A stretch of 41,597 nt of DNA, taken from IMG/VR virus record IMGVR_UViG_2703718828_000001, positions 1 to 41,597 of that record; one strand, written 5' to 3'. Source of the DNA: a virus. Lineage: Duplodnaviria > Heunggongvirae > Uroviricota > Caudoviricetes. Position numbers and translations under genes: made by a program. This document shows, piece by piece, positions 1,032-40,408 of the stretch. How positions within the stretch are numbered: the first letter of the stretch is position 1; each line of letters starts with the position of its first letter. The notes below the pieces were generated by a model. It was not told where the DNA came from. It searched no databases and saw only the letters and a program-made list of their open reading frames with translations.

Positions 1032-1423
1032 GGTTGCTTGCCGAATATCCATTGGTTGCCAGCATGCGCCTGGAACTTAACGGAGGTATCAGGAAGCAAC
1101 AGTTCCTGCACCACCTCGCCAGACTCGACAAAGTAGTAATTGCTGTCAGTGACATTGTTAATAAATAAACCCTGTCGTTCAGCCTCACTGAGTTCGCCAA
1201 TTATTTTCATGACTTTTTTACGAATCGGACGATAGTCTGGCTCTATCCCGGCCAACTTGGCAGCTGCATAGTTATGGTGGCCATCCATCAAAATGGTGTA
1301 TTGCTGTCCACGAAGGACTATCGGATAGACAGAAACGATGAATCGTTTAAACCTGATTGCACGATCCGCAACTTTTGCGTTATCAAGATATCGCTGGCTG
1401 CTAATAAGCTTTCCTTTGATCAC
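1028..1423 (-). CDS. ParB-like nuclease domain protein (tentative)
   Basis: GTG start at 1423 preceded by AGGAGG; motif ILMDGHHNYAAAKLAGIE. Confidence 0.45.
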   Translation of the reverse strand: MIKGKLISSQRYLDNAKVADRAIRFKRFIVSVYPIVLRGQQYTILMDGHHNYAAAKLAGIEPDYRPIRKKVMKIIGELSEAERQGLFINNVTDSNYYFVESGEVVQELLLPDTSVKFQAHAGNQWIFGKQP

Positions 1424-2235
1424 GGCTTCACCTCCTGCTGCGGTGCTGCAGGCAGCGGCATCCAGTGGGTTATCTCACTGCTCTGGAATTGCGCTTGTAA
1501 TTCGCTCTTGATGAACCACACAGGCCCTTGCCGTTTGCTTTCGCTCCACCACCCCCAATAATTTCCGTCAGTTTCAGGCATCCGCTCACTGCAAGCCACC
1601 CAACCATCCGGAATCACCGGAGAGTTGCCAGCGGCTAACTTCCTGTTCAGCTCCAGCGCCACCATAGCGATGGTCGATGTCGTGAGTGAGTGCATGTGAG
1701 GATTGCTTGCTACAGCCTCCAACCAAACGAGGTCGTTGAATCGATCGAAGTCAAAATCCTCGGGCAACCTGCATTCCTTCGAAACAGGTTCGGCATCCTG
1801 AAGCATGGCGGCGCGGCAGGCTAACCAACATTGCCACATCTGATTAAGCACCCGCCCGGCATATCCAGTGCCGCTACGCATGAGCCTTGAGTCATAGTTC
1901 TCAGTAATCCACTTCTCGAAGGCTAGTCTTGAGAAGTCGAAATCATCAGGCACAGATGCCGGCGCTGGCGGGGCGGTGAATAGCGGTTGTACAGCAACGT
2001 CGCCATCTTGTGTCACAAACTTAGCGCGCGCCGGGTCATTGGTTACATGGTTCTTATCGCGATATTCCCACTGCCACGCAACGGGCTCAGCCGTCAGCGC
2101 TGCCAGCGTGATTTCTGCCAGGCGAAGATGGATAACTGCGGCTTCAGAGGCTCCAGGTATTCTCTCTACCGCACCGCGCAACACCGCGATATTTTTCTGA
2201 GCCTGATTGATCAACTGCTCTTTGGTGAATGTCAT
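1420..2235 (-). CDS. DUF551-like phage protein
   Basis: 271 aa; C-terminal GWVACSERMPE...WGWW motif; AAGGA RBS upstream of ATG at 2235. Confidence 0.55.
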   Translation of the reverse strand: MTFTKEQLINQAQKNIAVLRGAVERIPGASEAAVIHLRLAEITLAALTAEPVAWQWEYRDKNHVTNDPARAKFVTQDGDVAVQPLFTAPPAPASVPDDFDFSRLAFEKWITENYDSRLMRSGTGYAGRVLNQMWQCWLACRAAMLQDAEPVSKECRLPEDFDFDRFNDLVWLEAVASNPHMHSLTTSTIAMVALELNRKLAAGNSPVIPDGWVACSERMPETDGNYWGWWSESKRQGPVWFIKSELQAQFQSSEITHWMPLPAAPQQEVKP

Positions 2236-2245
2236 GGGTTAGTCC

Positions 2246-2509
2246 TTAGCCTGCGGTGCTCAATACACCAGATGGAAAATCTATCGTCTCATCAAAACCC
2301 GCACCTACTGACGCTACTGAAGTGCACCAGTCGCCAGAGGAGCGGTTATCTAGCGCGTCTTGCACCTCTTTATCCCGCCGCAGGTCATACAGAAAGATGG
2401 TCGGATCGCCGATGGTGTAAAAACCGATTTTCTTCGGTGAAGGGCAACGGTCGAGTACGGCTTGCAGCTCGTCTATCCATGCCCGCTCTTTTGCAGTTAA
2501 AGTAGCCAT
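2246..2509 (-). CDS. Hypothetical protein
   Basis: ATG at 2509 with GGAGG RBS; the longer 2246..2578 ORF would overlap the upstream gene. Confidence 0.45.
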   Translation of the reverse strand: MATLTAKERAWIDELQAVLDRCPSPKKIGFYTIGDPTIFLYDLRRDKEVQDALDNRSSGDWCTSVASVGAGFDETIDFPSGVLSTAG

Positions 2510-2510
2510 A

Positions 2511-3053
2511 TCACCCCTCCCCGTTGATGCGGATGCCAGTAGCGGCTGCGGATTCGTCATGCGCGCGTTTCGCGGCATTTAGAATTACCGCCAGAATTAC
2601 CGCCAGTGAGGTGTGCGCGCCATCCAGACGAATCGTGTTATGAATGGCTGCCATTGCCTCGCGCAGATTGCTGTGGCTCGCCTCCAGCTCAGCAATCCGT
2701 TTGCGTGCCGCTGTGAGTTCTGCCATGTGCTCACGGAGGCTGTCAGTTGCTGCTTCCAGCTTGTCCCAATCAGGATTGAAGTTTGCCAACTGCGCGAGCT
2801 GGTCTTTCAAAAAGCTGATGCTCTTGTCTTTGGCTTCCAGCTCATCCAGCAGCGCCAGTACGGTGGCGGGGTTGGCAGCGGCGATGAATACTGAATCAAC
2901 CTTGAGGCAGTGCTGGGCTATTGCTTTTACCCCGACCTTGACCTCGTAGCCCCGCGCGCCTTTGTGTGGGTGATATGATTCCCAGCGGCCCCATGATGCT
3001 TTGTTTGCTGCATCTGCCGTTTCACGTAATGCGATTTTGTCGATGTTGCTCAT
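2511..3053 (-). CDS. Ea22-like coiled-coil early protein
   Basis: 180 aa, heptad-rich (LDELEAKDKSISFLKDQLAQL..., ELEASHSNLREAMAA); ATGA overlap with upstream gene. Confidence 0.5.
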   Translation of the reverse strand: MSNIDKIALRETADAANKASWGRWESYHPHKGARGYEVKVGVKAIAQHCLKVDSVFIAAANPATVLALLDELEAKDKSISFLKDQLAQLANFNPDWDKLEAATDSLREHMAELTAARKRIAELEASHSNLREAMAAIHNTIRLDGAHTSLAVILAVILNAAKRAHDESAAATGIRINGEG

Positions 3054-3733
3054 TGGGCTGCTCCTTCCAGTGAATCAGGCAGTTTTGTGTAATGCGTGAC
3101 GCCTCGCAGTGAATTGATAGAGCGGGAGTGGTCTGCAAGCCAGATTTTGTGGATATTGGTGTCGCTGCCTGCGCAGAAGTTGTGTTCCATCCACTTCGCG
3201 GAGCAGTATTGTGGGCCAACATCCGTTTCGTAGCGCACCCAATAGCGTCCAAACTCTGCCGGTTGATTGCCTTCAATCCAGACCTGCGTCCGCACTTCAG
3301 CCAGGTAGGCGTCGGTGGCCGGGGTTTCAACGCGGAAGTAAACCGGATCGCCGCCTTCAAAGTTACCAGGGTCATCGACCAGTGTTTCGTGCTCATCAGC
3401 AGAGTAGACCTCCTGACGAAGCAGTCCATGCTTCAGTGCCAGCTCCTGTATTTCCGCACCATCAGCGGAGCCACCTTGCCAAGCGATAGAGAGCAACGCA
3501 TCGACGAACGCCTTCAGCCCCGCATTCTCCGCAGCCATCGCCGCTAACCTGGCTTCCAGATTCTCAATGGTGATTTCTAACTGGCGACCGTAGCGTGAGG
3601 ACTCGGTGAGCAACTGATCTGACAGTGAGAGCTTGCGCACCAGGTAGGCAGAAAGCGTTTCACCAACCAAGAGATCGGTTGGAATGCACTTACCATTAAG
3701 AAGACCATTCATTTCTGTAATCGTAAATTTCAT
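3050..3733 (-). CDS. Hypothetical early-left protein
   Basis: 227-aa ORF, translationally coupled on both sides. Confidence 0.5.
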   Translation of the reverse strand: MKFTITEMNGLLNGKCIPTDLLVGETLSAYLVRKLSLSDQLLTESSRYGRQLEITIENLEARLAAMAAENAGLKAFVDALLSIAWQGGSADGAEIQELALKHGLLRQEVYSADEHETLVDDPGNFEGGDPVYFRVETPATDAYLAEVRTQVWIEGNQPAEFGRYWVRYETDVGPQYCSAKWMEHNFCAGSDTNIHKIWLADHSRSINSLRGVTHYTKLPDSLEGAAQ

Positions 3734-4560
3734 GCTGATGCTCCTGAACGGCTTGAGGCGATAGCTTTATGCTCGTCGATGATTTCCTGTACTTCTGCAT
3801 GAGCTAAACCTTTGAGAGTTATCACTCCTGTGTTACTGATTCCTGCCAGGCTTACCAGCTCAACCAGACGTCGCGCTTTCTTCACACTGATTTCGGGAGA
3901 AATGACGCTGCGGGTGACTTTCTTTTTCCCTTTAGCTGCAGCAGCAGCCTTGTCTTGTTGAAGCACATCTCCAGCCTTTTCGCCGTACTCTTTCACACGG
4001 CCAACAGCAACCTCGACAGAGACGGCCCCTGATTTAACCTCACGCTGAACATCATGATTAGCGGTACTGAGAAGCAGGAGTTTTTCGACGGTGGGCACAG
4101 ACTTATTGACCAGCTTTGCGATCTCGCTGGTGGTCTGGTTAAACGCGTTATGCAGTTCCTGGATAACCGCGGCCTGTTCCATATCGGATAATGGAAGCTG
4201 GTTATTGCTGGTCATGATGCGAGCCAGGCGCTGAACATCGTTACCGTTGAAAGGCATGATGTGGATGCGGTCTACAGGCTTTCCTGCTTCAGCGCAGCGA
4301 GCATAGCAACGACGACGGCGGTGACCTTCGACAACCCACACCCCACCTTCATCACGGGCGATAACTTCCAGCGGAGGTACTGAGCCACCATTCATCAGAT
4401 ATTCGAACAGGTCATCATCAGCCAGGCGGGTACGATCATCGTTGTCGTCACGCTTGTTGAAACCTTCGCGCACGTGGATATCGTCGAGACTGATGAACAT
4501 GCCGGTGTCGGTACGCTTGATGGTTCCGTCACGAGACATCAATTTAAATGAGTTGGCCAT
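3730..4560 (-). CDS. ParB N-terminal domain protein with helix-turn-helix
   Basis: ParB box-like VVEGHRRRRCYARCAEAG followed by HTH-like TSEIAKLVNKSVPTVEKLL; ATG at 4560 overlaps upstream TGA. Confidence 0.65.
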   Translation of the reverse strand: MANSFKLMSRDGTIKRTDTGMFISLDDIHVREGFNKRDDNDDRTRLADDDLFEYLMNGGSVPPLEVIARDEGGVWVVEGHRRRRCYARCAEAGKPVDRIHIMPFNGNDVQRLARIMTSNNQLPLSDMEQAAVIQELHNAFNQTTSEIAKLVNKSVPTVEKLLLLSTANHDVQREVKSGAVSVEVAVGRVKEYGEKAGDVLQQDKAAAAAKGKKKVTRSVISPEISVKKARRLVELVSLAGISNTGVITLKGLAHAEVQEIIDEHKAIASSRSGASA

Positions 4561-4919
4561 CACGCAACACCTTCGCTTAATACAGTCAGGGTTACAGGCG
4601 TGAGTTCGCGCAGTTCTCGCTGTGCTTCCAGCAGGTGCATATTGCTGCGGGTTTTGGTGTGACGCTCAACAATGCGATCGCACTCCTTGGCCCAGCTCGT
4701 AACGTCATCCCGAAGGGTGGCATTTTCAGCAGCAAGTTCCTTGCGCTGTTTCATTGCCTCGCACAGCGCCACGCTGGTGTAATCCAGGCGGTTCGCCAGT
4801 TCGGTCATCAGCTGAGCTGAAGCAACAGGCAGAAACTTAGCTGCGGTACGAGCTGCATCGATCAGTTGCTCGCGGGTCAGGCGTGGTTGTAACTCGGTGA
4901 CGTTCTGTGTGTTCGTCAT
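4560..4919 (-). CDS. Hypothetical protein
   Basis: ATG at 4919 with GGAG RBS (track ORF begins at an upstream GTG at 4952). Confidence 0.5.
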   Translation of the reverse strand: MTNTQNVTELQPRLTREQLIDAARTAAKFLPVASAQLMTELANRLDYTSVALCEAMKQRKELAAENATLRDDVTSWAKECDRIVERHTKTRSNMHLLEAQRELRELTPVTLTVLSEGVA

Positions 4920-4969
4920 TGTTAGTTTCTCCGTTATATAAGCGCTCTGCACAGCGCTGATTTTTGGCC

Positions 4970-5230
4970 TTACAACTTAAAAGAGGCCGCCTTGGTCTTT
5001 CGGGGTGTTGCGTTTTCGTTTAGTGATTTCGGTTTTAGAAACCTGCTTATCTGCCCAGGCTTTCGCATGCCGTAACACGTCGTCAAAAATCGCGCCTTTC
5101 TTGCTTGCCTGTGACATGCGTTTATACAAATCAAGCGCCTGCCACGCCCCCCCTGAGCCACCGAAGAGGAAAAGCCCTGTTTGATGAGCAATTCCTTCAC
5201 GTTCTTCTCAATAAATTCGAGGTGGTTCAT
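4970..5230 (-). CDS. Hypothetical protein spanning a C7 homopolymer; possible frameshifted or dual-frame gene
   Basis: ATG at 5230 with GGAGG RBS; two frames stay open for ~57 codons downstream of the homopolymer at 5147-5153. Confidence 0.4.
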   Translation of the reverse strand: MNHLEFIEKNVKELLIKQGFSSSVAQGGRGRRLICINACHRQARKARFLTTCYGMRKPGQISRFLKPKSLNENATPRKTKAASFKL

Positions 5231-5374
5231 CAGTCCTCCAGTGGAAAATCCGCTGAATTTTGGTTGCACGAATCCCTCGCCTGGTGGCGACTAAAAATAA
5301 AGGGGTTTCGTTTTAGTAAGCACCCAGCCTGGGCACTTAGTGAAACGGGCGACTGCAATCGCCTGTTAGCTTCT

Positions 5375-5459
5375 CCACAACTGAGAGCGCGTTCCGCTCG
5401 AAATTGCATTTAACGAACTGACACTTAGGTTAAAGGTCCAGAACGCGCTTTCAGTTGTG
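5375..5459. repeat. 19-bp inverted repeat (one mismatch) with ~46-nt spacer in the leftward early transcript
   Basis: ccacaactgagagcgcgttc at 5375-5394 versus gaacgcgctttcagttgtg at 5441-5459. Confidence 0.6.
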
Positions 5460-5564
5460 TAAAAGGGGCGGTCGACATAAGGACATTCAGAACTGCCGAC
5501 CGCCAAGACTACACACAGCATTTGTTGCAGTTACTACGGGTTTACCACGCTGGCTACGTGATAC

Positions 5565-5641
<77 letters not shown>

Positions 5642-5818
5642 AACTGGGAGCGCACTCCGCTTTTGTTTCACACCTGTCATCCACACTGGTTGATAAGGAG
5701 TACGCTCTCATGTTGTACGCCTGTCTTTTAACCACATCAGGCTCGGTGGATCCTGCTATTCCCCAACAACAAGGATTCGGTTAATCTGAAATCCCCAACA
5801 TTTGGATAGTGATCACGC

Positions 5819-6055
5819 ATGAAGCGCTCAGATGTTTTAACCCAGTGCCTTATTAATACCGGCTGCGGGCTTTCAGAAGCTGATATCCGACACGGCATCC
5901 GGACTACCTTCTCTGAAGAGTACCCAGATAAAAATTACGATTCCTGGGACATTGAGATCAGCGATCAGACAGCAAATCACATCATTAAAACCGTTGGCCG
6001 TGCTATGTGGATAAAAGTCGACCTATTTATCCGTGATCTCTGGGACGCCTACTGA
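5819..6055 (+). CDS. Hypothetical small protein, antisense to the leftward operon (uncertain)
   Basis: 78-aa ORF with weak RBS; 3' end overlaps the convergent minus-strand gene. Confidence 0.3.
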   Translation: MKRSDVLTQCLINTGCGLSEADIRHGIRTTFSEEYPDKNYDSWDIEISDQTANHIIKTVGRAMWIKVDLFIRDLWDAY

Positions 6056-6271
6056 TCCCAAAGGGGCGGAGCCAATCCCTCTAAAACCGGTCGCCATAGT
6101 GCGACCACATTTGTTGGCTTCAGCCTCCAAAGAGGTTTTATCTTTCTCCAGCGCTTCAATAACACCGCCCATAAACAATAGGTAATCGGCTGCGACTGCT
6201 GACTCTGTGAGTAAGGTCTGCTTCAGAACCCCATTAACCAAAAGCTCAATCCTGTTTGCGCTTGAACTCAT
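6023..6271 (-). CDS. Hypothetical protein, first gene downstream of pL (the position lambda N occupies, but not Arg-rich)
   Basis: ATG at 6271 with GGAG RBS; MSSSANRIELLVNG.... Confidence 0.45.
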   Translation of the reverse strand: MSSSANRIELLVNGVLKQTLLTESAVAADYLLFMGGVIEALEKDKTSLEAEANKCGRTMATGFRGIGSAPLGSVGVPEITDK

Positions 6272-6349
6272 CACCACTCCATCATGTGCCATATGCCGTT
6301 CTGCTTATTCTCCGCAGTTTCTGAATGATATTTCCTGCGGTACGAGATA

Positions 6350-6402
6350 AATGTAGGATAACTTACCTTTGGCTGTCAATACTAAAAGTAGGAAATCTTA
6401 CA
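6350..6402 (-). promoter_or_regulatory. pL-like leftward promoter with OL operator copies
   Basis: On minus strand a -35 TTGACA (plus 6374-6379), 18-bp spacer and -10 TACATT (plus 6350-6355); operator-like GTAGGATAACTTAC (6353-6366) and GTAGGAAATCTTAC (6389-6402). Confidence 0.6.
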
Positions 6403-13074: not shown

Positions 13075-13443
13075 ATGCGCGATATTCAAATGGTTTTAGA
13101 ACGCTGGGGCGGGTGGGCTGCAAGTGATAATTCTGGTGTCGATTATTCACCTATTGCTGCGGGATTCAAAGGGCTCCTACCTCAGGAAAGCAAACCCCGT
13201 CTCTCTTGCACTGATGACGATGCCTTAATCATTGAAGGGTGCCTTGCTCGCTTAAAGAAGAAAAAGCCCTATGAACATTCTTTGCTAGTAGCTCATTATT
13301 TATACGGTATTTCTAAGCGGAAGATAGCTAAAGCGCGCAAGAAAGATGAGAAGATTATTCGCATTGAGATACAACTTGCAGAAGGCTTTATTGATGGATG
13401 TTTGGCAATGTTAGACATCAAACTTGAGATGGACTTATACTAA
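13075..13443 (+). CDS. Late-gene antiterminator Q (QuuD-like)
   Basis: MRDIQMVLERWGGWAA...AAGFKGLLP...CLARLKKKKP resembles QuuD-type Q proteins; GGAGA RBS. Confidence 0.7.
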   Translation: MRDIQMVLERWGGWAASDNSGVDYSPIAAGFKGLLPQESKPRLSCTDDDALIIEGCLARLKKKKPYEHSLLVAHYLYGISKRKIAKARKKDEKIIRIEIQLAEGFIDGCLAMLDIKLEMDLY

Positions 13444-13450
13444 TAATTAT

Positions 13451-13480
13451 GGCGGCCACATACTTTGTGGCCCACGCCAA
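13451..13480. terminator. GC-rich hairpin between convergent genes (bidirectional terminator candidate)
   Basis: Stem ggccaca / tgtggcc (13454-13472) flanked by A/T-rich sequence. Confidence 0.45.
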
Positions 13481-13482
13481 CA

Positions 13483-14259
13483 TTATTTTGCTACAACAAA
13501 AGGAATAATATTATCTGCAGGGATTATGATGCTATTTATTTTTGGTATCAATAATCTGCCATTTTGATAAAAATCAAATACGAATCTAAACTCTTTCTCA
13601 TGCCTGAATTTTTGTGGTTTAAGCATATAGCTATGGCTTAACCAATCAATAACTTGTTTCGGATTAGTTTCAACCTCTTTGTTCTCAATCTGTATATTCC
13701 TTTCAGTGTACTTTATTTGGGTAGCTTCCCACTCCAAATGTAAAGTATCTTTTGTAACCTCTCTGTCGAATAGAGATTCACCATTTTGAATTCTCTTCCC
13801 TATAGTTAGTATCAAAGACTGCGCAATTTCATTAGCTACTTTCTCTAAATCTTCTAATTTGATGTGCCAGTAATCATTATAATCCTTGAATATGGATTTG
13901 CATTCAAGAGGATCTTCAAGAAGTGAAATGCAGAATACAAATCTATTGTATTTACTCAAAGATGCCGTAGCCTTAAATTTATCAATGAATAAATAGTCAG
14001 TTGCTAGCTTACTGTGAGGATATACAATTAATTCCTCGGTGTAAAATTTGTTATCAGAATTAAATGACGATGACATTTGATTGAATAAATGTGCAGGTAA
14101 ATCTATTCCGGATAAGTTAAAAGTCATAAATATATATCCTTCATCCTTGTCTGCAATCTCTTCTTTTTCTGTATCCCTGTATTCCGTCAGACTTCCTATT
14201 TTGATTGTTTTCCTGATTAAAATATTGTCACGTTCATCGCAACTTTTCACTAGATACAT
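13483..14259 (-). CDS. AT-rich orphan cargo gene, 258 aa, no recognisable domain
   Basis: ATG at 14259 with AAGGTG RBS; visibly A/T-rich against GC-rich flanks; antisense to the late operon, between Q and the lysis cassette. Confidence 0.6.
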   Translation of the reverse strand: MYLVKSCDERDNILIRKTIKIGSLTEYRDTEKEEIADKDEGYIFMTFNLSGIDLPAHLFNQMSSSFNSDNKFYTEELIVYPHSKLATDYLFIDKFKATASLSKYNRFVFCISLLEDPLECKSIFKDYNDYWHIKLEDLEKVANEIAQSLILTIGKRIQNGESLFDREVTKDTLHLEWEATQIKYTERNIQIENKEVETNPKQVIDWLSHSYMLKPQKFRHEKEFRFVFDFYQNGRLLIPKINSIIIPADNIIPFVVAK

Positions 14260-30141: not shown

Positions 30142-30852
30142 ATGCGCCAGAAAACCATTGATGCCATCATCGCGCATGCTGCAGCTGAATATCCTCGCGA
30201 GTGCTGCGGTGTGGTGGCACAGAAGAGCAGGGTGGAGCGATATTTCCCCTGCCGTAATCTCGCTACCGAGCCGACTGAACACTTTCACCTGTCGCCGGAA
30301 GATTACGCAACTGCCGAAGACTGGGGGGCGGTAACGGCGATCGTACACAGCCACCCAGATGCAACCACCCAACCGAGCGAAACTGACAAAGCCCAGTGCG
30401 ACCTGAACGGACTGCCCTGGCATATCGTCAGCTGGCCGGAGGGTGACCTGCGCACCATTATGCCCAGAGGAGAAATTCCCCTCATTGAGCGGCCATTCGT
30501 GCTGGGCGTTTACGACTGCTGGGGGCTGGTAATGAGCTACTTCCGGCAGACCCACGGCATCGAGTTGAAAGATTACCGGGTCGATTATCCCTGGTGGGAA
30601 AACGACTATCCGGACAACTTCTATCAGGACTGCTGGTATGAATGCGGCTTCCGTGAATTTGACGGCCCGCCGCAGCCTGGTGATATGGTGATCATGCAGG
30701 TTCAGGCTGACAAGTGGAACCATGCCGGCATCCTGCTGGAGGGTAATATGCTTCTGCACCATCTGTACGGGCATCTGAGCCAACGCGTGCCCTATGGCGG
30801 CTACTGGCAGGAAAGAACTATGAAAGTTTTGAGATATAAAACCCTGTGCTAA
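30142..30852 (+). CDS. Tail assembly protein K (MPN/JAB plus NlpC/P60-like)
   Basis: ECCG...HSHP motifs at the N-terminus; 236 aa. Confidence 0.8.
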   Translation: MRQKTIDAIIAHAAAEYPRECCGVVAQKSRVERYFPCRNLATEPTEHFHLSPEDYATAEDWGAVTAIVHSHPDATTQPSETDKAQCDLNGLPWHIVSWPEGDLRTIMPRGEIPLIERPFVLGVYDCWGLVMSYFRQTHGIELKDYRVDYPWWENDYPDNFYQDCWYECGFREFDGPPQPGDMVIMQVQADKWNHAGILLEGNMLLHHLYGHLSQRVPYGGYWQERTMKVLRYKTLC

Positions 30853-30881
30853 TCTTCCTGCAATTCACAAAGGGAGAGGAT

Positions 30882-31280
30882 ATGAAAAGAATATTCTTGG
30901 GTTTAGTTATCGTCATATTAACTGGATGCTCCTCAAAACCTTATGAGGCAACGGGCATTATTTATGATTCATCACTTTTATATGACAAGACTGGTGCTAC
31001 CAAAGTAAGGGTACACCGTGTCCAGCAATTATCTGGATCGGGGTTGGGTGAGAACTGTCCATTAGTTTTGAAAGTTGATGAAAAAGAAGTGGCAGGGTTA
31101 CAGCAAAATCAGTATGTAGATGTTTACTTACCAAAGGGCGAGCATAAGATTTCAGTAAGATTCAAATGCGCGCTAACTGAATGGCGAAAATCTTTAAGTA
31201 TTATCGCTGACGGCCATTATCAAGAATACCAAACAGAGACCGGGGCTGCAGGTCAATATCGGATGTGGCAAGTTAAGTAA
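30882..31280 (+). CDS. Lipoprotein cargo gene inserted between K and I
   Basis: MKRIFLGLVIVILTGCSS lipobox signal; lower GC than flanking tail genes; own terminator downstream. Confidence 0.6.
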   Translation: MKRIFLGLVIVILTGCSSKPYEATGIIYDSSLLYDKTGATKVRVHRVQQLSGSGLGENCPLVLKVDEKEVAGLQQNQYVDVYLPKGEHKISVRFKCALTEWRKSLSIIADGHYQEYQTETGAAGQYRMWQVK

Positions 31281-31298
31281 AACGTTCGTCAAAATCGA

Positions 31299-31320
31299 GG
31301 TCGCTTAGGCGGCCTTTTTT
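31299..31320 (+). terminator. Rho-independent terminator after the lipoprotein gene
   Basis: ggtcgc-ttag-gcggcc (one G-U pair) followed by T7. Confidence 0.45.
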
Positions 31321-31332
31321 TATGGGGTAAGA

Positions 31333-31938
31333 ATGAGCGAAAACATGGTTAAAATCGAACTTGGCGGCATCTTAGGTAAGACATTTGGTAAAACCCATTA
31401 TCGATTAATAAGTACAGTTCATGAGGCTACAAGAGCTTTAGCGGCAACGATCACAGGGTTTGAAAAATTTATGATTACTAGTGATCGCCGTGGTCTTACT
31501 TATGCAGTTTTCAAAGGAAAGAAAAACATTGGCGAAGATGACTTGGGCTATCCGGTTACAGAAGATGTAATTCGTATCGTGCCCGTAATTATTGGAAGTA
31601 AAAAAGCTGGCGTGCTGCAAACCGTTTTGGGCGCGGTACTTGTTGTTGTAGGTGCAGTTGTAGGCGTAATGACGTCGTGGACTGGGGTTGGTGGCGTAAT
31701 AGGTAGCGGGATGGTTACCGCTGGTATCGGATTAATGGCCGGCGGTGTGATCCAGATGCTTTCTCCTCAGCCAGCAGGGCTGGCCAGTAAACAGGATGCA
31801 GATAACCGGGCCTCTTATGCGTTCGGTGGCGTAACAAATACCGCTGCGCAGGGGTATCCGGTGCCGCTTCTTTACGGTCGCCGGCGCATCGGCGGCGCGA
31901 TTATTTCAGCCGGCATTTATGTCCAAGATCAGCAGTAG
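31333..31938 (+). CDS. Tail assembly protein I
   Basis: 201 aa with Gly-rich hydrophobic C-terminal half (GAVVGVMTSWTGVGGVIGSGMVTAGIGLMAGG). Confidence 0.8.
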   Translation: MSENMVKIELGGILGKTFGKTHYRLISTVHEATRALAATITGFEKFMITSDRRGLTYAVFKGKKNIGEDDLGYPVTEDVIRIVPVIIGSKKAGVLQTVLGAVLVVVGAVVGVMTSWTGVGGVIGSGMVTAGIGLMAGGVIQMLSPQPAGLASKQDADNRASYAFGGVTNTAAQGYPVPLLYGRRRIGGAIISAGIYVQDQQ

Positions 31939-31957
31939 ACAGAAACGGGAGAGTGTT

Positions 31958-32203
31958 ATGAGTCTAGAAGAACGTGTAGGAGCGCTGGAATCTGCTATCG
32001 CCAGCTTGGCTTTGCAGCAGAGTAATAATTGGGATTTGAGTGATGTGGCGAGGAGTTTTGCGTCGGAATCCATTATAGATGCTTGTTGCGCGAGAGGGAG
32101 AATAAAAGCGGCCCAAGAACAGACCGCATATATGCAAATATTAGAAAATGGGATATCAGTGAAAATCGATAATGTTATTTCTGTCCGCTTGTTAGCGTTT
32201 TAA
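31958..32203 (+). CDS. Hypothetical small protein (cargo between I and J)
   Basis: 81 aa from ATG at 31958 with GGGAGAG RBS; 3' end overlaps the convergent gene by 29 bp. Confidence 0.45.
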   Translation: MSLEERVGALESAIASLALQQSNNWDLSDVARSFASESIIDACCARGRIKAAQEQTAYMQILENGISVKIDNVISVRLLAF

Positions 32204-32426
32204 CCATAACGCCAATTTGCGCAATTGCTAATTGAGCTGCAGCCTGCCCTTCATTTTGTGCATAATAGCGATCAAGGTTAGCAAGGAGTTTTTCAGCGAA
32301 CCCAGGCATTTCATCATTCAAAGTTCTTGCCAAAACTGCATACGCTCCTTGCATCGCATACACCGCTGTGGTGCTATCTGGCAGAGGCATCTCATTTGCA
32401 ATCGATTCTTCAAACTTATAATTCAT
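32175..32426 (-). CDS. Hypothetical small protein, convergent partner
   Basis: 83 aa from ATG at 32426 with AAGGA RBS. Confidence 0.45.
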   Translation of the reverse strand: MNYKFEESIANEMPLPDSTTAVYAMQGAYAVLARTLNDEMPGFAEKLLANLDRYYAQNEGQAAAQLAIAQIGVMVKTLTSGQK

Positions 32427-32554
32427 ATCTATTCCTTGACAGAGGTAAACAGCCATCCCTCTGCATAGTTGTTCGCCAGTGTCCCACCACTGACGGGCTG
32501 AATGCCTACCTTAGCCAGGGTTAAAACGAAACGACATCCTGATATTCAAACAGT

Positions 32555-32579
32555 AGCCACCTCCGGGTGGCTTTTTTTA
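32555..32579 (+). terminator. Rho-independent terminator immediately upstream of J
   Basis: agccacc-tccg-ggtggct followed by T7. Confidence 0.55.
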
Positions 32580-36326: not shown

Positions 36327-36964
36327 GCGGATTCGAATCTTATAACGATGCCGGAAAACTTCAGGTTGATTCGGAGAACAGGTCGACACTTTTTTATGAC
36401 CAGAGAACGCTGGGCGCTGTTACTGATAAAGGCTTTTACAGAGTAAACAGCCCGTTTGGTGATGGTTCGACGCTGGGGTATACCCCCACTCAGTTCTGGA
36501 ATGACGGAAGACTCAGATGGCTTCAACTGGGGACAAATAAATATGGGTTACCTGGCGCAAACCTTCTTGAGGATAACGCCGGGAGTATGATCCGCACTGC
36601 GCGAAATATTGGACTGGAGAGCGGGTACCTTGATGTTCTGGACAGCTCAGGGAACCTTATCTGGAGTGCTGTGTCAGCTTCGAAAATGCCCCGGGTGGTT
36701 GGCTTCTTTGATGTGCCGGCTAACTATGACCTGCAGAACAACACGTTTAGCATCACGCCAGGGTTCAACCCATGGATTCTGGTAAACAATTGTCCCGGTA
36801 ATCTCAGTGATGATGGAACGGTTGTTGGATATTCAGGTATTGCTCTTAAATGGACTGGTTCGCAGTTACAGGGGAGGTACATCTCAAGTAATCAGCGAAC
36901 CTGGGCCCAGACCATGCAGGGGAGAGGATTAAGAATTCCGATCGCCCGGTTTGTTGGGATTTGA
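36323..36964 (+). CDS. Hypothetical protein downstream of J
   Basis: 213-aa ORF, ATGA-coupled to the previous gene. Confidence 0.45.
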   Translation: MSGFESYNDAGKLQVDSENRSTLFYDQRTLGAVTDKGFYRVNSPFGDGSTLGYTPTQFWNDGRLRWLQLGTNKYGLPGANLLEDNAGSMIRTARNIGLESGYLDVLDSSGNLIWSAVSASKMPRVVGFFDVPANYDLQNNTFSITPGFNPWILVNNCPGNLSDDGTVVGYSGIALKWTGSQLQGRYISSNQRTWAQTMQGRGLRIPIARFVGI

Positions 36965-37291
36965 TGCCGGAGGAACACGCGGGTAGTGAGTGGCGATCAT
37001 ATCTTGCTTCACGCCCTTTGCTAACTCAAAACGATAAACAACATCAAACTTATTCGTTTTTTTATAGCAAATATTGCTCAAGCGCTTATTGATATGGCGG
37101 CTGAATATTCCGTTGCTACTGTCGGAAATAACTTCGACATCCCTGGTGGCACAGTCAATATTTACGTGAATATCCCCAGCCAAAGATAAGCGAGCGGCAT
37201 CAACCGGGTAATCCATCTGGAATGCGTTTTCTGTGTGCTTATTCGTACATCCAGTCACGAGCAAAATCGCTGCAACAAATAAAAGTTTCAT
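36929..37291 (-). CDS. Lipoprotein, possible Cor-like superinfection exclusion factor (by position only)
   Basis: MKLLFVAAILLVTGCT lipobox signal; minus strand between J-region genes and the side tail fibre. Confidence 0.5.
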   Translation of the reverse strand: MKLLFVAAILLVTGCTNKHTENAFQMDYPVDAARLSLAGDIHVNIDCATRDVEVISDSSNGIFSRHINKRLSNICYKKTNKFDVVYRFELAKGVKQDMIATHYPRVPPASNPNKPGDRNS

Positions 37292-39667: not shown

Positions 39668-40408
39668 CTAGCCACCCTGAGTACAAAGTTGCTTAATTCG
39701 TGCAATCACCTCATCTCTGTACTTCTGGTGTCCGCGCATAGCCCTTGGATGGGCAATTCTGAAACAGATTGCATTACCTGTTTTGAACTCCCACAGCTTC
39801 TCCGGAATGACTGAAGAAGTCTCATAGCCGCCCAGCTCAGTAAGCACCTGTTTTATGATGTAGTCTGTTCTCCGGGCTCCGGATGCAAAGATGATGAAAT
39901 CAGGCTCAAGGTGTTTAATTTGTACCGCCAGCAGCTTCAGCGAGGCTAATATGACTTCCTGCACTTCATTTTGAGGGCGATTGAGAGGGGTCAGTCCGTC
40001 GTAATCCCACGCCAGTAGATTGGCATACACGATTGCCTGGGGAAGAATATTAAGCTCCCGGGCCAGCCTGAAATGATATTGCGTGAAGCGGCTACGTGAT
40101 TTGAGGTTGGTGGTGCCATAATTTTGTACCGGAAGATGTTTCCTGTAACGATCTACAGCTTCTTCAACCACCTGCCCGATGGTGACGTCAGGTATAAGTC
40201 CCAACACCCGTGATATCGTATTCTTACCATTCAGCGTATTCCAGCCAGCGGTTTCACGTCCAACCAGCATGATTTTTACCGGTGAGTGCCAGTATTCTTC
40301 AAAGGGTACGGGTAAAAATACGCCTGAGTATTTATCCTCATTCAGGTTAAATGACTGGGCGTTAACTTCCTGCAATATCCGTTTGTACGCGTCTAATAGC
40401 TTTTCCAT
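39668..40408 (-). CDS. Hypothetical protein at the island junction; uracil-DNA-glycosylase-like motifs (tentative)
   Basis: 246 aa; KIMLVGRETAGW resembles UDG motif A and a C-terminal HPRA resembles motif B. Confidence 0.4.
   Translation of the reverse strand: MEKLLDAYKRILQEVNAQSFNLNEDKYSGVFLPVPFEEYWHSPVKIMLVGRETAGWNTLNGKNTISRVLGLIPDVTIGQVVEEAVDRYRKHLPVQNYGTTNLKSRSRFTQYHFRLARELNILPQAIVYANLLAWDYDGLTPLNRPQNEVQEVILASLKLLAVQIKHLEPDFIIFASGARRTDYIIKQVLTELGGYETSSVIPEKLWEFKTGNAICFRIAHPRAMRGHQKYRDEVIARIKQLCTQGG

Follow-up and report, generated by a model that had tools for sequence, protein, structure and literature searches.

A putative lipoprotein cargo gene, followed by a terminator-like hairpin, between tail genes K and I of an HK97-like Escherichia coli prophage

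Cor, an outer-membrane lipoprotein of phi80, N15, HK022 and the mEp phages that is encoded in the tail region of the prophage with a terminator behind its gene, makes the receptor unusable for phi80, N15 and HK022, and Llp does the same for T5. Llp and Rtp45 of phage Rtp are periplasmic outer-membrane lipoproteins that exclude phages, and Llp is reported to shield progeny from debris (PMC12685063). The HK97 protein gp15, a moron of the tail operon, blocks genome injection and leaves the receptor untouched; it has bacterial chromosomal homologues, and its exclusion depends on features of the incoming tail (PMC3594210). Lambda Bor is a prophage-encoded outer-membrane lipoprotein moron (cited in PMC3594210). 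Morons were defined as extra DNA of deviant GC content with its own promoter and terminator and with expression from the repressed prophage (Juhala et al. 2000, summarised in PMC3594210).

Here we analyse a lipoprotein gene, lpp, in a 41,597-nt stretch of viral DNA (IMG/VR record IMGVR_UViG_2703718828_000001, hereafter the window). The source of the window is an HK97-like E. coli prophage, and lpp is an extra gene at its K-I junction. The reading frame (30882-31280, plus strand, like all features below unless stated) runs from the ATG at 30882 to the stop codon at 31278-31280 and encodes 132 residues, the position and length given in the initial annotation. The slot is bordered upstream by the tail-tip gene K (30142-30852; JAB/MPN and NlpC/P60; Pfam Prok-JAB, 1.5e-20, and NLPC_P60, 5.6e-21; phrog_30), which ends in TAA, and the 29-nt spacer between K and lpp contains a strong Shine-Dalgarno sequence read from the DNA (AGGGAGAGG, 30871-30879). 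Tail gene I follows at 31333-31938 (phrog_32, 4.8e-73). The GC content of lpp is 0.401, compared to a window mean of 0.514 (sd 0.051, 400-nt windows), and only 2.7% of the 400-nt windows of the whole stretch are at or below 0.40; the tail genes K and J have 0.558 and 0.563. The initial annotation was therefore right that GC is lower here, but the low-GC tract does not stop with the lipoprotein gene and runs on into the first approximately 290 nt of I (0.399, versus 0.566 for the remainder).

Residues 1-15 (MKRIFLGLVIVILTG, 30882-30926) form a canonical lipoprotein signal peptide, with CSS following from Cys16 (codon 30927-30929). In it, a positive n-region precedes the 10-residue hydrophobic core and the lipobox L-T-G-C, which ends at Cys16; the peptide splits as MKR, IFLGLVIVI and LTG before the cysteine. 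In a six-frame scan of the 41.6 kb for the pattern [LVI][ASTVI][GAS]C, covering every start of ORFs of at least 40 residues, only 3 matches were obtained, so that the Lpp lipobox is not a chance match; the other two are a convincing second lipoprotein (36929-37291, minus strand) and a spurious antisense match. Cys16 is invariant in Lpp-family alignments of 42 and 27 sequences, in agreement with the clear lipobox claimed originally. Pfam LPAM_1 scores 19.1 bits, slightly below its cut-off of 20, and the identical protein at NCBI is named 'membrane lipoprotein lipid attachment site-containing protein'. Under the rules for Lgt, LspA and Lnt processing and for Lol sorting, Ser rather than Asp at position +2 directs a lipoprotein to the outer membrane. 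The +2 residue of Lpp is Ser, and no homologue in the alignment has Asp there; Lpp is therefore predicted to acquire its lipid at Cys16 and to be carried by the Lol system to the outer membrane, where it would be anchored facing the periplasm.

The mature part (Cys16 to Lys132 plus stop, 30927-31280) is predicted to form an eight-strand beta-sandwich with the conserved Cys59 and Cys96. In the AlphaFold2 model, built on the 42-sequence alignment, a short linker joins the helical signal peptide to eight beta-strands (mean pLDDT 82.6, pTM 0.75). Structure prediction, which had been proposed as a check, thus yielded a confident model, but the predicted fold is that of a generic small transthyretin-like beta-sandwich and names no partner. 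PDB structure searches gave no Llp, Rtp45 or lysozyme-inhibitor structure, the matches among viral structures are uncharacterised or DUF4352 proteins, and a PDB sequence search with the Lpp family profile returned chance-level matches only (E >= 0.1). Likewise, NCBIfam gave nothing above signal-peptide-level noise, and no family of the PADLOC defence models matched at E <= 0.1. Any likeness to DUF2846/transthyretin-like lipoproteins such as the T6SS protein TssJ is, for TssJ, at the level of fold only.

Pfam DUF2846 scores 15.1 bits against Lpp and does not reach its gathering score of 34.3, a threshold passed by one distant relative only (P0092, 46.5 bits). When 1.84 billion representatives were searched exhaustively with an HMM, 29 cluster representatives passed at E <= 1e-3. 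Of these, the small remote homologues all have a lipobox and often match DUF2846 weakly. Three matches were rejected as spurious: P0079 and P0089 are immunoglobulin-repeat proteins that match through their repeats, and P0090 matches over short repeated stretches only, with no coherent Pfam family. A literature search on DUF2846 gave no assigned function, and a structure paper on the DUF2846-annotated protein Bd1399 found it to be really DUF4360-like. Literature searches on mEp390, DUF2846, and lipoproteins, morons or superinfection exclusion retrieved no study of Lpp.

Closer relatives were found among phage protein families. Lpp matches the phrog_890 'lipoprotein' profile with an E value of 3.3e-12 (residues 1-128 on profile positions 1-131 of 136), and when the Lpp family is compared by hhalign with a wider family that includes mEp390, HK639, SSU5, Pseudomonas-phage and metagenomic members, the probability is 99.7% and the E value 3.5e-26, with both cysteines aligned. 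The mEp390 protein gp17 (YP_007112434), annotated 'lipoprotein' and also present in Fostie and CharmingMan, has 136 residues and occupies the K-I slot, as does Lpp, and shares with Lpp the lipobox, the two aligned cysteines and a downstream hairpin with a T-run. However, it is only 25% identical to Lpp and is missed by tblastn with Lpp as query; in a megablast of K-lpp-I, the match to mEp390, Fostie and CharmingMan ends 19 nt inside their lipoprotein gene. Wider-family members are also found at the K-I position in siphophages of P. aeruginosa and in phiAH14a, an Antarctic Pseudomonas phage. In HK639, the family member lies between the tape measure gene and M and adjoins a YafO toxin gene; further positions are the end of a P2-like prophage and, in SSU5, a site outside the tail genes. 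On profile evidence, Lpp is a new, divergent member of the PHROG 890 superfamily and distantly DUF2846-like, and the superfamily appears almost exclusive to the tail-tip genes of lambda-like siphophages, where its members usually stand just ahead of I. Lpp is less novel than first implied, given that a homologue in the same slot was already annotated as 'lipoprotein' in mEp390.

Downstream of lpp lies an intrinsic-terminator-like hairpin with a T7 run (GAGGTCGC-TTAG-GCGGCCTT plus T7, 31297-31321), recognised by folding, pattern and conservation of structure. The 8-bp stem (31297-31316) starts 16 nt past the lpp stop and runs into the T7 (31315-31321), which ends 12 nt before the start codon of I. 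RNA folding of the stretch gives a z of -2.84, and the hairpin and T7 of the initial annotation are confirmed. We compared 15 copies of the family, from the K-I, I-J and TMP-M junctions, from a chromosome and of the mEp390 type: a G+C-rich hairpin is present directly 3' of the gene in all 15, with a T-run in nearly all. Most K-I copies have a recognisable variant of GGTCGC-TTAG-GCGGCC, while the hairpins of the Buttiauxella, Leclercia, Citrobacter and Pragia copies are alike in shape but unlike in sequence. That the hairpins of different contexts are non-homologous but similarly shaped suggests function rather than shared ancestry alone.

Two consensus scans, which can miss weak promoters or those of other sigma factors, found no sigma-70-like promoter within 250 nt upstream of lpp; the same is true for the other copies that abut K. 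In copies not abutting K, the matches are weak, with 7-8 of 12 positions, and lie mostly 21-33 nt ahead of the ATG; they are not significant and can be called suggestive at most. The lpp gene is extra DNA relative to related phages, differs in GC from its neighbours and has its own terminator, but neither scan of the 250 nt upstream found a promoter of its own, and the gene therefore corresponds only partly to the classical definition of a moron.

The initial annotation regarded K and I as normally contiguous. This is true for phi80, where the two genes overlap, but not for HK97, which has a 321-bp gap with a 32-codon hydrophobic ORF unrelated to Lpp, closed by an annotated 'putative terminator' just before I. 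The HK97 gap is not a decayed copy of lpp, as there is no protein similarity and alignment at the DNA level is confined to its two ends, the 3' end of K and the sequence preceding I. ORFs between I and J of the window were compared with HK97 gp22 and gp23 and are not homologous to them. Between K and I, HK97-like phages have a permanent slot for cargo, and a terminator separates it from I. Among 36 IMG/VR viral contigs with an lpp gene, the gene immediately precedes I in 28, lies between I and J in 7 and occupies the TMP-M junction in 1; species-representative genomes show the same three junctions. The 28 upstream copies lie 43-80 bp from I, with K either 33-108 bp away or separated by 0.4-3.2 kb of cargo, and in Yersinia enterocolitica prophages Arc/Bro/ANT-type genes are stacked between K and the lipoprotein gene. 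The Pragia fontium copy is located in non-phage chromosomal DNA, between ppk/ppx and fabA.

Since Lpp is absent from most relatives and occupies various junctions, it is to be regarded as cargo and not as a tail component. With its variable position, its absence from most relatives and its export signal, it does not resemble a lambda-type tail protein, and among the homologues examined none was seen that lacks the lipobox, which had been named as the sign of a conserved tail component. The original proposal of an inserted accessory gene with a terminator has thus held up, and Lpp is very probably an accessory envelope lipoprotein carried as cargo.

The exact Lpp protein is present in several E. 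coli draft genomes, and one of these assemblies (GCA_015316765.1) matches 9.4 kb of the window, in the tail region, at 99.98%. By contrast, the lpp part of the query is matched by none of 5,426 complete E. coli genomes, and tblastn with Lpp finds nothing in 50,697 deposited phage records. In 28 related phage records, K matches that of the window at 80-84%, with lpp missing or replaced. The Lpp type is known so far from prophages and metagenomic viral contigs and from no deposited phage genome. Homologues fall into 76 clusters with 55-98% identity, most full-length ones having 131-133 residues, and are annotated as hypothetical throughout. Their hosts are spread across the Enterobacterales, among them Hafnia, Citrobacter, Lelliottia, Raoultella, Yokenella, Klebsiella, Erwinia, Rahnella, Rouxiella, Leclercia, Yersinia, Pantoea, Kosakonia and Pragia. 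C59, C96 and motifs such as VRVHR, GLQQNQY and GQYRMW are invariant or nearly so, and the two cysteines would fit a periplasmic disulfide. Close pairs of lpp genes have a dN/dS of 0.21-0.28 and distant pairs one of about 0.1-0.16, compared to 0.03-0.06 for K and I. Lpp is under purifying selection that is several-fold more relaxed than that on K and I.

Sliding nucleotide identity and composition delimit a mosaic block at 30775-31700, which consists of the 3' end of K, lpp, the terminator and most of I, and is 91-97% identical to Hafnia prophages and 83-92% to Citrobacter prophages. Against a Hafnia prophage, identity is 0.73-0.89 in K, rises to 0.91-0.97 from approximately 30775 (where 0.95 is reached) to approximately 31700, and drops to 0.80 at the end of I; the last approximately 75 nt of K are already inside the high-identity block. 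Between the window and Hafnia, dS is 1.3 for K, 0.19 for lpp and 0.38 for I. Given that the block matches the low-GC tract and that dS agrees, lpp, the terminator and most of I look like one recently exchanged module, and the putatively foreign DNA comprises the 5' part of I in addition to lpp. Hitch-hiking alone, between two conserved anchors for recombination, could account for the linkage of lpp to I.

What might such a lipoprotein do? The initial annotation proposed lysogenic conversion or superinfection exclusion, both of which stay candidate roles. We consider it a realistic possibility, though short of probable, that Lpp excludes phages at one step or another. The most direct model would be a mask of the Cor or Llp type, in which Lpp binds the periplasmic face of the outer-membrane receptor of J, probably FhuA. 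A predicted small outer-membrane lipoprotein encoded beside host-recognition genes would be suited to this role, the J C-terminus of the window is approximately 80% identical to that of phi80, and tblastn of phi80 Cor against the window gave nothing below E 0.4, so that the window has no cor gene of its own. Llp and Rtp45 provide the precedent (PMC12685063), being, as predicted for Lpp, small outer-membrane lipoproteins that face the periplasm and whose genes adjoin those for receptor binding. They are, however, proteins of approximately 6 kDa that are receptor-specific and matched to the receptor-binding protein, whereas Lpp has approximately 12.5 kDa and a predicted beta-sandwich; its 116 mature residues are about twice those of Cor, Llp or Rtp45. 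Pfam and PDB structure searches gave no sequence or structural similarity of Lpp to Llp or Rtp45, and Cor, with 77 residues and a gene downstream of J, likewise lacks sequence similarity and a fold match to Lpp. Moreover, the position of cor in phi80 is occupied in the window by the second lipoprotein from the lipobox scan (120 residues, MKLLFVAAILLVTGC..., 36929-37291, minus strand), which is the better candidate for a Cor analogue. It has homologues in HK639, LLS, Flotzy and CharmingMan, which share the J C-terminal type of the window, as well as in LMessi and Eeyore; T1-like lytic phages have more distant ones. A K-I lipoprotein as a replacement for Cor is ruled out by mEp390 and Fostie, each of which has both, and since HK639, CharmingMan, mEp390, Fostie and the window all pair a PHROG-890-type protein with a lipoprotein in the cor slot, the two appear to be non-redundant. 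Nor does the type of Lpp follow that of the J C-terminus. Hafnia and Citrobacter copies that are 84-89% identical to Lpp accompany J C-termini only 34-40% identical to that of the window, yet CharmingMan, with a J C-terminus 87% identical, has the 25%-identical lipoprotein type; in the small sample of 7 loci, there is no co-variation. We therefore disfavour a receptor mask and consider it quite unlikely.

A benefit to the lysogen, for example serum or complement resistance as for Bor, envelope stress tolerance or adhesion, with no role towards phages, is also rather unlikely, although lambda Bor sets a precedent (PMC3594210) and the conserved terminator points to transcription that does not depend on the late operon. 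The non-prophage copy of Pragia fontium and distant relatives that are ordinary bacterial DUF2846-like lipoproteins are in line with such a benefit, and they indicate that the fold is not intrinsically phage-directed. However, a generic benefit gene would be expected at many prophage positions, and the copies lie in the tail-tip cluster in all 36 viral contigs, 28 of them directly upstream of I, and nearly always in the genomes. The two consensus scans detected no promoter for lpp in the window, and Pfam Bor/Iss, TraT and Ail/Lom do not match Lpp; the bor gene lies by the lysis genes, and serum resistance is a function of Bor itself. A role confined to the lytic cycle, with Lpp made late only for envelope conditioning in lysis and release, for protection from debris, or as part of tail assembly or the virion, would fit the co-directional position in the late tail operon, 29 nt past K and without a promoter found, as well as the conserved place beside I from E. 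coli to Pseudomonas phages. As a whole we regard it as improbable, and for assembly or the virion in particular, predicted export and lipidation would take Lpp away from cytoplasmic tail assembly, and most related phages with collinear tails lack a gene whose position in any case varies. Protection from debris, as said of Llp (PMC12685063), has nothing arguing against it and overlaps with the explanation that we prefer. Finally, Lpp is rare in E. coli and has no functional annotation anywhere, as might be expected of a decaying or functionless passenger between conserved tail genes, but the conservation of length and sequence across many Enterobacterales genera, the dN/dS of 0.1-0.28, the invariant cysteines and motifs and the confident fold prediction largely refute this, leaving it a very slim chance.

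Our preferred explanation is that Lpp is a moron-type accessory gene in the cargo slot of an HK97-like E. coli prophage, and that it may protect the infected or lysogenic cell, and the released progeny, against the entry of related siphophages at the envelope. Because no promoter of its own is detectable, lpp would be transcribed at least with the late tail operon, with antiterminated polymerase presumably reading through the hairpin. The conserved terminator suggests that there is also some transcription in the prophage state, stopped before I and J. The action of Lpp would follow receptor binding and be directed at the tail tip or at ejected tail proteins in the periplasm, leaving the receptor of J unmasked; alternatively, Lpp may serve as late-expressed protection of the progeny. 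A step other than receptor binding is argued for by the co-occurrence with Cor and the absence of co-variation with the J C-terminus, but exclusion specifically at a post-adsorption envelope step remains a tentative proposal, with a fairly low probability in our view. By analogy, its closest functional precedent is HK97 gp15 (YebO-like), which like Lpp is a moron in an HK97-like tail operon with chromosomal homologues. Unlike Lpp, gp15 is a small inner-membrane protein and not a lipoprotein, its gene lies between the tail chaperone and tape-measure genes, and the two are not homologous.

We also entertain, as a long shot, that the PHROG-890/DUF2846-like lipoproteins constitute one ancient, receptor-independent exclusion family linked to the tail tip, which would capture or block a conserved tail-tip protein released into the periplasm (I, the C-terminus of the tape measure, or the K peptidase). 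If so, co-inheritance of lpp with the 5' two-thirds of I would represent matched sensitivity and escape. Lpp is ordinary in type; what stands out is that the family persists beside I across distant hosts and co-occurs with lipoproteins in the cor slot. HK97-like tails have cargo slots at both the K-I and the I-J junction, each with a terminator before the next tail gene, which should aid the reading of prophage annotations. If Lpp does exclude phages, it would be a third kind of lipoprotein exclusion in coliphages, beside Cor and Llp/Rtp45, and its lack of a tie to a particular receptor would bear on prophage-mediated resistance in phage therapy.

At the I-J junction, the window carries a 616-bp insertion (31940-32555) that was not found in any relative compared. 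It holds two convergent ORFs whose 3' ends overlap, one of 81 aa (31958-32203, plus strand) and one of 93 aa (32175-32456, minus strand; phrog_25136), together with a terminator-like hairpin on the minus strand (32127-32108). In HK97 the same junction is occupied by the gp22 'moron' and the gp23 'reverse moron', in a layout like that of the window's ORF pair, but there is no sequence similarity between the two pairs. The phi80 I-J moron, morF (L024, the phi80 locus, 1605-2138), has a lipobox, …LLGVLFISG/CAPQ, if read from an internal Met; its sequence is unrelated to that of the 132-aa window lipoprotein encoded between K and I.

In HK97 (locus L067, 2212-2532) the K-I gap measures 321 bp and contains a 32-aa hydrophobic ORF, MYTVGFGWIFVGIFIGLILWFFINRASVRANR, followed by an annotated putative terminator; the HK97 feature table retrieved has no CDS entry for this ORF. 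The gap is enlarged to 2.5-5.4 kb in L005 from Yersinia enterocolitica (1097-6001) and in locus L003 (4088-6001). In both, a 101-aa ORF with a signal peptide has a stop that overlaps the start of the lipoprotein gene, and the L005 gap genes further encode Arc-like repressors and the anti-repressor-type Bro-N/P22_AR_C and KilA-N/ANT proteins.

A copy of the lipoprotein gene is also present in the non-prophage chromosome of Pragia fontium, with ppk/ppx on one side and fabA on the other (L006, ~6001-6399; L012, ~4001-4396) and terminator-like hairpins on both flanks. This chromosomal copy could be the source of the phage gene or, conversely, a domesticated copy of it.

The window encodes a second lipoprotein at 36929-37291 (minus strand; 120 aa, MKLLFVAAILLVTG/C, GC 0.435, phrog_25729), on the opposite strand, with the gp23-like gene and the side tail fibre gene flanking it. 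In phi80, this position is held by cor, which encodes a 77-aa superinfection exclusion outer-membrane lipoprotein, and the window protein is this phage's probable Cor analogue. Homologues at 75-84% are found in HK639, LMessi, CharmingMan, LLS, Flotzy and Eeyore, and others at ~38-44% in T1-like phages of Klebsiella and E. coli.

GC in the window is lowest (0.31-0.34) at 13150-14100, a tract with a 258-aa ORF (13483-14259, minus strand) that has no Pfam match and is likely a further moron, with the early-right region on one side and the lysis region on the other. Another low-GC (~0.41) ORF, of 246 aa, lies close to the prophage right end (39668-40408, minus strand); it matches phrog_29550 (E 1e-177) and no Pfam family.

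Directly 5' of J lies the hairpin AGCCACCTCCGGGTGGCT followed by T7 (32555-32579). The hairpin after the K-I lipoprotein gene of mEp390 and CharmingMan is almost identical to it, and the HK97 K-I terminator resembles it. It seems that the tail-tip cargo slots are each closed by a terminator, followed by TATGG(G) and then the next tail gene.
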